A stretch of 1,987 nt of DNA from Escherichia coli (GTDB lineage: Bacteria > Pseudomonadota > Gammaproteobacteria > Enterobacterales > Enterobacteriaceae), in assembly GCF_003334385.1 (NCBI RefSeq), contig NZ_QOWN01000103.1; one strand, 5' to 3'. The translations under genes were made by a program, and so were the position numbers. This document shows, one piece after another, positions 1 through 1,987 of the stretch; positions within the stretch are counted from its first letter, which is position 1; every line of letters starts with the position of its first letter. A model generated the notes under the pieces. That model saw only the letters and a program-made list of their open reading frames with translations, was not told the DNA's origin and ran no database searches.

Positions 1-471
1 TGGTGGCTGGTCTGCCGGGGGACGATTCATAAGTTCCGCTGTGTGCCGCATCTCACCGGGCGGCGCTTTGAGCACGGGGTGACGGACTGTTACACGCTGT
101 TCCGGGATGCTTATCATCTGGCGGGGATTGAGATGCCGGATTTTCATCGCGGGGATGACTGGTGGCGTCACGGTCAGAATCTCTATCTTGACAATATGGA
201 GGCGACTGGTTTTTACCGTGTCGCACTGACAGAGGCGCAGCCTGGCGACGTGCTGCTGTGCTGCTTTGGTTCATCGGTGCCGAATCATGCCGCCATTTAC
301 TGTGGTGACGGCGAGCTGCTGCACCATATTCCTGAACAACTGAGTAAACGAGAGAGGTATACCGACAAATGGCAGCGACGCACACACTCCCTCTGGCGTC
401 ACCGGGCATGGCGCGCATCTGCCTTTACGGGGATTTGCAACGATTTGGCCGCCGCATCGACCTTCGTGTGA
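1..471 (+). CDS. K: Phage tail tip assembly protein K (gpK-like), C-terminal part only; 5' end lies upstream of the window. The portion present looks like an NlpC/P60-type peptidase domain.
   Basis: Frame 1 is open from base 1 to the TGA at 469-471 (translation begins WWLVCRGTIHKFRCVPHLTGRRFEHGVTDCYTLF... and ends ...NDLAAASTFV). The ORF track's start at 43 is a GTG inside this frame, not the true start. The translation matches my recollection of the lambda gpK C-terminus. A Cys in a D-C-Y context (codon 88-90) and a His in an N-H-A-A-I-Y context (codon 286-288) fit NlpC/P60 catalytic motifs. Lies immediately upstream of I and J, as in lambda. Confidence 0.9.
   Translation, partial: WWLVCRGTIHKFRCVPHLTGRRFEHGVTDCYTLFRDAYHLAGIEMPDFHRGDDWWRHGQNLYLDNMEATGFYRVALTEAQPGDVLLCCFGSSVPNHAAIYCGDGELLHHIPEQLSKRERYTDKWQRRTHSLWRHRAWRASAFTGICNDLAAASTFV
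350..357 (+). promoter_or_regulatory. Possible purine-rich ribosome binding site for I, lying inside the K coding sequence
   Basis: GAGAGAGG at about 350-357, roughly 11 nt upstream of the I ATG at 369. The spacing is slightly long, and initiation may instead depend on coupling to K translation. Confidence 0.3.
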
Positions 472-1040
472 AAACGGGGGCTGAAGCCATCCGCGCACTG
501 GCCACACAGCTCCCGGTGTTTCGTCAGAAACTGAGCGACGGCTGGTATCAGGTACGGATTGCCGGGCGGGACGTCAGCACGTCCGGGTTAACGGCGCAGT
601 TACATGAGACTCTGCCTGATGGCGCTGTGATTCATATTGTTCCCAGAGTCGCCGGGGCCAAGTCAGGTGGCGTATTCCAGATTGTCCTGGGGGCTGCCGC
701 CATTGCCGGATCATTCTTTACCGCCGGAGCCACCCTTGCAGCATGGGGGGCAGCCATTGGGGCCGGTGGTATGACCGGCATCCTGTTTTCTCTCGGTGCC
801 AGTATGGTACTTGGTGGTGTGGCGCAGATGCTGGCACCGAAAGCCAGGACGCCCACGGCAGCAAGTACAGATAACGGCAAACAGAACACCTATTTCTCCT
901 CACTGGATAACATGGTTGCCCAGGGCAATGTTCTGCCCGTTCTGTACGGTGAAATGCGCGTGGGGTCGCGGGTGGTCTCTCAGGAGATCAGCACGGCAGA
1001 CGAAGGGGATGGTGGTCAGGTTGTGGTGATTGGTCGCTGA
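369..1040 (+). CDS. I: Phage tail tip assembly protein I (gpI-like), complete, 223 aa
   Basis: ATG at 369-371, TGA at 1038-1040, 223 codons. Translation MAATHTLPLASPGMARICLYGDLQRFGRRIDLRVKTGAEAIRALATQLP... matches my recollection of lambda gpI in sequence and length. Overlaps the 3' end of K by 103 nt in a different frame, as in lambda. N-terminal ~90 aa is charged/mixed (reported ubiquitin-like fold in gpI), followed by a long Gly/Ala-rich hydrophobic stretch. Confidence 0.95.
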   Translation: MAATHTLPLASPGMARICLYGDLQRFGRRIDLRVKTGAEAIRALATQLPVFRQKLSDGWYQVRIAGRDVSTSGLTAQLHETLPDGAVIHIVPRVAGAKSGGVFQIVLGAAAIAGSFFTAGATLAAWGAAIGAGGMTGILFSLGASMVLGGVAQMLAPKARTPTAASTDNGKQNTYFSSLDNMVAQGNVLPVLYGEMRVGSRVVSQEISTADEGDGGQVVVIGR

Positions 1041-1100: not shown

Positions 1101-1987
1101 ATGGGTAAAGGCAGCAGTAAGGGGCATACCCCGCGCGAAGCGAAGGACAACCTGAAGTCCACGCAGCTGCTGAGTGTGATCGATGTCATCAGCGAAGGGC
1201 CGATTGAAGGTCCGGTGGATGGATTAAAAAGCGTGCTGCTGAACAGTACGCCGGTGCTGGACAGTGAGGGGAATACCAATATCTCCGGCGTCACGGTGGT
1301 GTTCCGGGCAGGTGAGCAGGAGCAGACGCCGCCGGAGGGCTTTGAATCCTCCGGTTCCGAGACGGTGCTGGGTACGGAAGTGAAATACGACACGCCGATT
1401 ACCCGGACCATCACGTCTGCAAACATCGACCGTCTGCGCTTTACCTTCGGTGTGCAGGCACTGGTGGAAACCACCTCAAAGGGGGACCGGAATCCGTCGG
1501 AAGTCCGCCTGCTGGTTCAGATACAGCGTAACGGTGGCTGGGTGACGGAAAAAGACATCACCATTAAAGGCAAAACCACCTCACAGTATCTGGCATCGGT
1601 GGTGGTGGGTAACCTGCCGCCGCGCCCGTTCAATATCCGGATGCGCAGGATGACGCCGGACAGCACCACAGATCAGCTGCAGAACAAAACGCTCTGGTCG
1701 TCATACACCGAAATCATCGATGTGAAACAGTGCTACCCGAACACGGCACTGGTCGGCGTACAGGTGGATTCGGAGCAGTTCGGCAGCCAGCAGGTGAGCC
1801 GTAATTATCATCTGCGCGGGCGTATTCTGCAGGTGCCGTCGAACTATAACCCGCAGACGCGGCAATACAGCGGTATCTGGGACGGAACGTTTAAGCCAGC
1901 ATACAGCAATAACATGGCCTGGTGTCTGTGGGATATGCTGACCCATCCACGCTACGGCATGGGGAAACGTCTTGGTGCGGCGGATGT
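1101..1987 (+). CDS. J: Phage tip attachment / host specificity protein J (gpJ-like), N-terminal 295 aa only; 3' end lies downstream of the window
   Basis: ATG at 1101-1103, preceded by GGAG at 1089-1092 with an 8-nt spacer. Frame stays open to the window end. Translation MGKGSSKGHTPREAKDNLKSTQLLSVIDVISEGPIEGPVDGLKSVLLNSTPVLD... matches my recollection of the lambda gpJ N-terminus. Position directly after I with a 60-nt spacer matches lambda. Confidence 0.95.
   Translation, partial: MGKGSSKGHTPREAKDNLKSTQLLSVIDVISEGPIEGPVDGLKSVLLNSTPVLDSEGNTNISGVTVVFRAGEQEQTPPEGFESSGSETVLGTEVKYDTPITRTITSANIDRLRFTFGVQALVETTSKGDRNPSEVRLLVQIQRNGGWVTEKDITIKGKTTSQYLASVVVGNLPPRPFNIRMRRMTPDSTTDQLQNKTLWSSYTEIIDVKQCYPNTALVGVQVDSEQFGSQQVSRNYHLRGRILQVPSNYNPQTRQYSGIWDGTFKPAYSNNMAWCLWDMLTHPRYGMGKRLGAAD

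Follow-up and report, generated by a model that had tools for sequence, protein, structure and literature searches.

The 1,987-base stretch of Escherichia coli DNA considered here (contig NZ_QOWN01000103.1; below, the window is this whole stretch) carries, by the list of its open reading frames (ORFs), three + strand genes: a K-like gene of which the 3′ part is present, a complete 223-codon ORF and a J-like gene represented by its 5′ part. It is the K-I-J tail region of a lambda-like phage, not of lambda itself, and the complete ORF is gene I, whose product, gpI, has in its middle a long Gly/Ala-rich segment free of charge. The segment is a helix-turn-helix, with two marginally hydrophobic Gly/Ala-rich helices, H1 and H2. 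This hydrophobic helix pair has already been described in cryo-electron microscopy (cryo-EM) papers of 2023-2026, and encountering it from the sequence is a rediscovery.

The K-I-J order, including the K/I overlap, is also that of lambda NC_001416. Escherichia phage PhiR42_1 (96.6% identity) has the closest DNA in the phage collection, and at least 80% of the window is covered by 226 phage records, the matched genes being annotated as tail tip assembly protein K or ‘C40 family peptidase’, tail tip assembly protein I and host specificity protein J. Over its full length gpI is 98% identical to lambda gpI as present in PDB entries 8IYK, 8IYL, 8K35 and 8XCG (E = 1.9e-138 for residues 1-223 against 8IYK chain I), and it is the same protein as that of 9E7M. 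The two agree at 218 of 223 residues; the 5 substitutions are A50V and a change of residues 163-166 from RIQT to TAAS, and none is within 100-156. The DNA of the segment differs from that of lambda by two synonymous base changes and specifies the same amino acids, so the published results on lambda H1 and H2 apply directly. Membership of the lambda gpI / TAPI family (PF06805 plus a TAPI-C domain) is borne out on all five points considered. Pfam PF06805 (Lambda_tail_I) itself matches residues 14-97 only (E = 1.8e-28), PHROG 32, ‘tail assembly protein’, is matched with E = 9.9e-83, and NCBIfam has no model that matches gpI. The features are collected in Table 1.

Table 1. Genes of the window and parts of gpI (positions in the window; aa, amino acids of the 223-residue gpI)
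Feature	Coordinates	Strand	Remarks
Gene K, 3′ part: NlpC/P60 domain of the JAB + NlpC/P60 tail-tip assembly peptidase	1..471	+	PHROG 30, PHROG 2552
Gene I: tail tip plug / ‘insertion’ protein gpI	369..1040	+	223 aa including the annotated N-terminal 13 residues; stop 1038-1040
N-terminal ubiquitin-like beta-grasp domain, aa 14-97	408..659	+	AlphaFold2 pLDDT >90; Pfam Lambda_tail_I; ends in conserved P92...G96-A97 motif
Junction G96-A97-K98-S99-G100, putative gpK (JAB) cleavage region	654..668	+	Directly upstream of the hydrophobic segment
Helix H1, aa 100-129, GGVFQIVLGAAAIAGSFFTAGATLAAWGAA	666..755	+	AlphaFold2 pLDDT ~70; invariant G108, stripe 101/108/115, conserved Q104
Inter-helix turn, aa 130-135, IGAGGM	756..773	+	AlphaFold2 non-helical, pLDDT <50; uncharged, length-variable in the family
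Helix H2, aa 136-156, TGILFSLGASMVLGGVAQMLA	774..836	+	AlphaFold2 helix 136-155; motif G143-x-S-M-x-L-G-G150-V-x-Q-M-L
Basic linker and ‘plug’ region, aa 157-175, PKARTPTAASTDNGKQNTY	837..893	+	Low conservation, net basic flank; 4/5 of the differences from lambda
C-terminal beta-strand anchor domain, aa 176-223	894..1037	+	Conserved F176, N181, G186, P190, G194, G199
Gene J, 5′ part: central tail fiber / hub protein	1101..1987	+	PHROG 31 ‘central tail fiber J’, E = 2.4e-186

The uncharged segment and its conservation in the gpI family

The original prediction, made from the letters alone, had put a Gly/Ala-rich hydrophobic segment of about 55 residues with almost no charge at 666-836, or about residues 100-156. 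The translation is exact, and the 57 residues concerned (A14 G13 L6 V4 F4 I4 S3 T3 M3 Q2 W1) include no D, E, K, R or H. The full uncharged run spans residues 99-157, 59 residues, and runs at least as long arose in 45 of 100,000 shuffles of the whole protein, in which 33 of 223 residues are charged and the mean longest run was 24.5. Glycine and alanine make up 27/57 residues (47%) of the segment as against 35/166 (21%) elsewhere in gpI (Fisher p = 2.6e-4). That the segment is a real and not a chance feature is confirmed. At the DNA level, tandem, direct and inverted repeats over 600-900 are limited to short, chance-level matches, and an Rfam scan of the window at a permissive E-value gave no match. 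A terminator-like match at 762-779, inside the segment, was dismissed, one such match having been found by the promoter/terminator scan and 1.4 being expected by chance; an antisense ORF of 85 aa at 632..889, for which there is no PHROG family match, was dismissed as a by-product of the GC-rich Gly/Ala codons.

On the Kyte-Doolittle scale the 19-residue maxima are 1.78 at both 105-123 and 138-156, the classical threshold being 1.6, and the segment has what is looked for in a transmembrane hairpin, two charge-free stretches of at least ~19 residues above the hydropathy threshold. On the Eisenberg scale the mean hydrophobicity is 0.61-0.65 and the hydrophobic moment is low, 0.14-0.20. The best windows yield Hessa sums of +1.5 to +2.7 kcal/mol, which are plain sums without position-dependent terms on a scale for the Sec translocon, not the route here; being positive, they would make the helices no more than marginally hydrophobic for a translocon.

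Structure prediction had been put forward as a check on the segment, and AlphaFold2 (AF2), run with a 50-sequence alignment, does give two helices, 100-129 and 136-155. They are separated by a low-confidence turn (130-135), preceded by a confidently predicted beta-grasp (14-97) and followed by a poorly predicted C-terminus. Foldseek finds SAMP1, MoaD, CysO, Urm1 and ubiquitin as the best matches of the N-terminal domain, at the end of which stand the invariant P92 and the 96% conserved G96. Iyer, Burroughs and Aravind (2006) had recognized the ubiquitin-like domain and predicted that the JAB domain of the K protein cleaves after its last glycine.

An HMMER scan of 1.84 billion representative proteins, with a cut-off of E <= 0.001, returned 3,128 gpI relatives, and the segment is conserved across the family at 32-60% identity. 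The longest uncharged runs of 54 full-length relatives (~36-60% identity) lie in the same place, with a median of 54 residues, and the Kyte-Doolittle maxima of the family are mostly 1.8-2.4. Counted by alignment columns, the charged fraction is 0.006 in the segment, 0.24 in the N-terminal domain and 0.28 in the linker that follows; on both flanks of the segment K and R outnumber D and E in most sequences, making the flanks net basic. Six columns are invariant in the 50-sequence alignment, and three of these are G108, G143 and G150. In the C-terminal domain G194 is also invariant and the other positions named in Table 1 are nearly so. Q104, Q153 and the hydrophobic positions of the segment are conserved as well, its best conserved part being the H2 motif that starts at G143. 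All 50 aligned sequences have G143 and G150 at a spacing of 7, but G108 and G143 are between 22 and 42 residues apart, a combination that reads in the alignment as the signature of two fixed helices and a free loop.

The original prediction also singled out GxxxG / AxxxG-like spacing. Such spacing is present, as G127xxxG131, G133xxxG137 and many variants with A or S, and gpI here carries A129xxxG133xxxG137xxxS141, but the spacing that the family conserves is 7, not 4. With small residues aligned at 101, 108 and 115 (88-100% Gly or small), the family pattern is an i/i+7 stripe (G101-G108-small115; G143-G150), a heptad and not GxxxG. Lambda's clearest GxxxG run (129-141) lies in the least conserved columns and is absent in most relatives. 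Assignment to the glycine zippers ((G/A/S)xxxGxxxG) was rejected, columns 129-134 being occupied in only 22-38% of relatives.

The helix pair in the tail tip and the probable loss of the domain before it

The segment had been thought unusual for a soluble tail assembly factor, a description of gpI that is outdated: cryo-EM and mass spectrometry make it part of the virion, where it plugs the tail tip as a trimer. By mass spectrometry Xiao et al. (2023) showed that virions contain gpI, and their model of 135-223 is a trimeric plug that supports the C-terminal coiled coil of gpH and in which 137-152 is highly hydrophobic; between this model and PDB 9E7M the modelled residues run from 133/135 to 223. 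In the closed state of Ge and Wang (2024) gpI is resolved from residue 101 and consists of H1, H2, the plug (159-175) and strands. In their LamB-bound open state only 167 onward remains, H1 and H2 are missing, and the residues after H2 point to the outer membrane. They report that TMHMM predicts H1 and H2 to be transmembrane and propose insertion into the outer membrane, and in the Ur-lambda paper gpI is said to have ‘strongly predicted transmembrane domains’. According to the cryo-EM papers the C-terminal strands of gpI augment beta-sheets of gpJ as they thread through gaps in its hub domains, and these hub domains hold the gpI C-terminus. The same two helices, again predicted to be transmembrane by TMHMM, are present in THIP of pyocin F7 (2026 preprint), and those of the F-pyocin protein PA0640 (2026 preprint) form a ring around the coiled coil at the C-terminus of the tape-measure protein.

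The identity of the helix pair and its packing in the lumen can be regarded as practically certain. Of the two roles first suggested for the segment, helix packing in the tail tip is thus what the closed lambda tip, with H1 and H2 resolved, and the pyocin helices around the tape-measure coiled coil display. Membrane interaction is upheld to the extent that the helices are TMHMM-positive, are lost on LamB binding and have been proposed in the papers to insert; the insertion itself is hypothesized. Placement in a buried core with no transmembrane propensity was to have counted against the membrane idea. The segment is buried in the tip lumen and has transmembrane propensity too, so burial does not separate the two ideas.

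What precedes the helices in the primary product is probably absent from the virion. For lambda, the cutting of the ubiquitin-like domain from gpI by gpK is reported in a conference summary, and the literature found on this cleavage included no full paper. In mature F-pyocin particles PA0640 has lost its N-terminal domain by proteolysis, as mass spectrometry shows; the preprint does not name the protease. The lambda virion mass spectrometry of Xiao et al. gave one gpI peptide with 9.87% coverage, and 202-223 is the only tryptic peptide of lambda gpI to which that figure corresponds (22/223 residues). The N-domain has several ordinary tryptic peptides, none of which is among the virion peptides, and gpL, present in 3 copies like gpI, gave 8. 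A gpI peptide from the C-terminus only, together with the lack of N-domain peptides, is consistent with N-domain loss in lambda virions, though weak as evidence for it. Alignment by hhalign of the family profile with E. coli MoaD (sequence verified against 1FM0) places gpI 79-96 on MoaD 63-80, but over just 17 columns and with a non-significant E = 0.052. On this alignment the cleavage site would tentatively be near G96-A97, equivalent to the terminal GG of MoaD, with the mature protein starting near K98. Such a start is two or three residues before the helices and agrees with 101 as the first modelled residue. That the precursor is cleaved just upstream of the segment is, all considered, quite probable.

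The ThiS/MoaD/SAMP/ubiquitin beta-grasp proteins and their JAB (MPN+) partners resemble the domain upstream of the segment in fold, in the conserved C-terminal glycine and in the adjacent JAB gene. The likeness is to the neighboring domain and not to the segment, and there is no evidence of conjugation or sulfur-carrier chemistry; in gpI the ubiquitin-like fold seems to be a removable assembly module. Ge and Wang suggested the gpI N-terminus as the missing peptidoglycan-cleaving enzyme, which the predicted ubiquitin-like fold makes unlikely. The only peptidase-like fold in the window is the NlpC/P60 domain of gpK, and gpK was not identified in the virion mass spectrometry of Xiao et al.

A proposed route to the outer membrane and its alternatives

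A course from precursor to membrane insertion can be put together from the above, and as a whole it is given a probability of about 0.6. It would begin with gpI made as a precursor in which the ubiquitin-like domain (14-97) directly precedes the hydrophobic helices. At tip assembly gpK would remove this domain, leaving the helix pair at, or a few residues from, the new N-terminus. Three copies of gpI would then plug the virion tip, their C-terminal strands woven into gpJ, the plug loop closing the lumen and the helices packed within it around the tape-measure C-terminus, where the invariant i/i+7 glycines would provide a tight packing surface. Published cryo-EM shows the plugged state, and it is for the pyocin homologue that the helices are stated to surround the coiled coil. 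On binding of LamB by gpJ the hub would open and the plug come apart, setting the helices free in the direction of the cell surface. Their release is shown, since H1 and H2 vanish from the open-state map. Once free they would most likely insert in the outer membrane as basic-flanked hairpins, three hairpins giving six helices, and the inserted hairpins may anchor the open tube and help start a conduit for gpH* and then DNA; the odds on the insertion itself are about even. The hosts visible among the 1,746 phage records with a gpI homologue are all diderm bacteria, which fits an outer-membrane role.

Several points weigh against this course. Insertion of alpha-helices from the outside into the outer leaflet, with its lipopolysaccharide (LPS), is unusual, and six helices alone cannot line a pore as wide as DNA. 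By translocon standards the helices are only marginally hydrophobic (the Hessa sums above), and AF2 predicts the segment with moderate confidence (pLDDT 50-75). The diderm-only restriction may reflect the limited reach of tblastn. The lambda gpK cleavage comes from a conference summary and its exact site from an alignment that is non-significant, so that the register of the cut is tentative. In the Ur-lambda paper gpI is unresolved by cryo-electron tomography and the main periplasmic channel is assigned to gpH*. No cited paper has density or biochemistry for gpI in a membrane; the open map just loses H1 and H2, and their insertion has the standing of a hypothesis.

Other tails and tailocins offer comparisons. 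The F-type pyocin plug (THIP of F7; PA0640 of P. aeruginosa) shares with gpI a removed N-domain, two hydrophobic helices, a C-terminal plug/anchor, the disposition of the helices round a tape-measure coiled coil and a proposed outer-membrane insertion; in contrast, its tailocin is a killing particle and no carrier of DNA, and its helices are at 94-142. Distant members of the gpI family are the putative tail assembly protein of phage T1 (9L9P) and the homologue in 25VF (E = 7e-20 and 1.8e-17). The segment is among their best-aligned parts, GGLFQVVLGAAIMVAAFYTGGASLA...GGAMVLGGVMQMISP, with a shorter inter-helix loop, and the T1 paper does not discuss the hydrophobic region of the protein. The tip of T5 also has a trimeric plug in contact with the tape-measure protein at its C-terminal coiled coil, and receptor binding opens the T5 hub. 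On triggering, the pb3 plug of T5 refolds into basic-collared hydrophobic beta-hairpin legs that fix the tube to the outer membrane; the channel through that membrane has been proposed to come from a hydrophobic two-helix stretch, 46 residues long, in the tape-measure protein pb2*. There is no sequence relationship with gpI, the T5 plug is a domain of the hub protein, and the two-helix stretch is in the tape-measure protein; by analogy, lambda gpI appears to combine the roles of both the pb3 plug and the pb2* stretch.

Class I fusion peptides, such as those of influenza HA2 and HIV gp41, are Gly/Ala-rich, uncharged and hydrophobic, have an N-terminus made by cleavage, and are held in a metastable trimer until their receptor-triggered release. 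The resemblance is an analogy only: there is no homology, gpI has a 57-residue helix pair where the fusion peptides have ~20 residues, and its target would be the bacterial outer membrane, with no membrane fusion. Pursued nevertheless, it would make the helix pair a fusion-peptide-like free N-terminus, primed by gpK cleavage, held round the tape-measure coiled coil by the invariant i/i+7 glycines, released on LamB binding and inserting as three basic-flanked hairpins, a six-helix collar that nucleates the DNA conduit, with the ubiquitin-like domain perhaps serving also to chaperone the hairpin in soluble form and away from the producing cell's own membrane. In this extended form the proposal is speculative and should be held as a doubtful possibility. 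The tail-tip literature found contains neither such a framing of the gpI helices nor a test of it.

The helices could instead be a latch within the lumen, gripping the tape-measure coiled coil and stabilizing the metastable closed plug, and then be expelled or disordered after triggering without any part in a membrane. Disorder fits the loss of H1 and H2 from the open-state map equally well, and the packed, closed-tip state is the only one seen experimentally; invariant i/i+7 glycines are typical of tight helix-helix packing, and the marginal Hessa hydrophobicity and the assignment of gpH* as channel former are also in keeping with a latch. A clamp working in a soluble lumen, however, needs no 50-60 uncharged residues, and here charge is excluded family-wide (0.006) with both ends basic. 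As the residues after H2 point to the outer membrane on opening, and T5 uses analogous parts for membrane anchoring, a role confined to the lumen is considered unlikely.

A different membrane might be involved: the helices could cross the periplasm with gpH*/gpHC to the inner membrane or, during assembly, tether the precursor to the inner membrane of the producing cell. With residues 167-223 staying on gpJ in the open state, and a linker of ~10 residues tethering the hairpin, the inner membrane is out of reach unless gpI is released. Alpha-helical hairpins are admittedly typical of inner-membrane, not outer-membrane, proteins, and gpI binds gpHC, a contact that might outlast ejection. The soluble ubiquitin-like domain directly upstream in the precursor tells against the tether, as does the expression and analysis of recombinant PA0640 without mention of membrane targeting, and an inner-membrane destination is judged quite improbable.

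The description of 2006, a flexible Gly-rich low-complexity linker between the ubiquitin-like and C-terminal domains, accords with the 47% Gly+Ala and with the length variation of the central columns 129-134, but it is now very improbable indeed: cryo-EM resolves two helices and AF2 predicts them, G108, G143 and G150 are invariant with a fixed G143-G150 spacing, the hydrophobic positions and Q104/Q153 are conserved, and the DNA has no repeat structure. The segment was accordingly not classed as a low-complexity flexible linker, given its positional conservation, its helices and the absence of repeats. A chance or compositional artefact, or the signal of another frame or strand, is as good as excluded by the conservation and the solved structures, for although GC-rich GCN/GGN codons keep the antisense ORF and a +1-frame ORF (637..774) open, only 45 in 100,000 shuffles attain the observed run, the feature is conserved in thousands of homologues, the antisense ORF and the window lack PHROG and Rfam matches respectively, and P0019, a database sequence shifted at this point to the +1 frame, occurs singly and has its protein disrupted.

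The wider locus and outer-membrane passage

Within the window gene K has, besides the PHROG matches, a weak match to the phage NlpC model TIGR02219 (NCBIfam), and its JAB domain is upstream of the window. Longer K-I ORFs in the database include what we take, from inspection of the sequence by eye, to be a JAMM-type motif (HSHPGGLPWLSEAD). As annotated, K and I overlap by 103 nucleotides (369-471), and whether gpI truly starts at ATG 369 or at ATG 408 is uncertain. ATG 369 has a Shine-Dalgarno-like GAGAGG 11 nucleotides upstream and ATG 408 has no obvious one. A start at the residue aligned with Met14 (ATG 408) is used by 33 of 49 diverse homologues, and the 210-aa form that begins there is the most populous version in the database (P0012, with 5,268 members, vs 1,140 for the 223-aa form).

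The database entries that bear on gene fusion here are P0010, P0013, P0015, P0017, P0019, P0036, PHROG 28576 and PHROG 31, and fused K-I ORFs occur in public data. Programmed frameshifting from K to I was rejected as their source: the fusion junctions differ within the overlap and each fusion is a singleton. The fusions look like indels or pseudogenes. On the other side of gpI, positions 133-276 of PHROG 31, ‘central tail fiber J’, match gpI 55-209 whereas J itself aligns from 263, and with gpI thus matched upstream of J, genuine I-J fusions do occur in some phages, as noted by Iyer et al. in 2006.

The base differences between gene I and its lambda counterpart are clustered, with 15 of 28 within 848-881 (aa 160-171), where they give the RIQT to TAAS change at 163-166; outside this stretch gene I is nearly identical to that of lambda. 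From the sequence comparison, the cluster has the look of a small patch of mosaicism or recombination, placed where gpI is conserved least, and the TAAS variant is also found in the database protein P0036. In the I-J intergenic gap, at 1054-1084, is the strong stem-loop GAAACCGCC-UGCG-GGCGGUUU with the U-rich 3′ side UUUUGUCGUUU. Its 67-nucleotide context folds at -20.6 kcal/mol (z = -2.1 vs shuffles), and it looks like an intrinsic terminator or an RNA-stabilizing hairpin, though it is not among the calls of the simple terminator scan. One phage record with a gpI 97.8% identical, MW057783.1 (‘Campylobacter phage CJLB-4’), is named as a C. jejuni phage and has a 48-kb genome with lambda-like coordinates; it may be mislabelled or reflect lambda contamination.

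How lambda DNA passes the outer membrane has been a question for decades, as DNA does not fit through the narrow pore of LamB. Among elements that might engage that membrane, the gpI helix pair is at present the leading candidate, and its candidacy was published in 2023-2026. To it are added here the conservation of the segment across the family, its heptad glycines, the fixed H2 motif with a free loop before it, the basic flanks, and the fit of the mass spectrometry with N-domain loss. G108, G143, G150, Q104 and Q153 are concrete residues with which membrane insertion can be directly tested.

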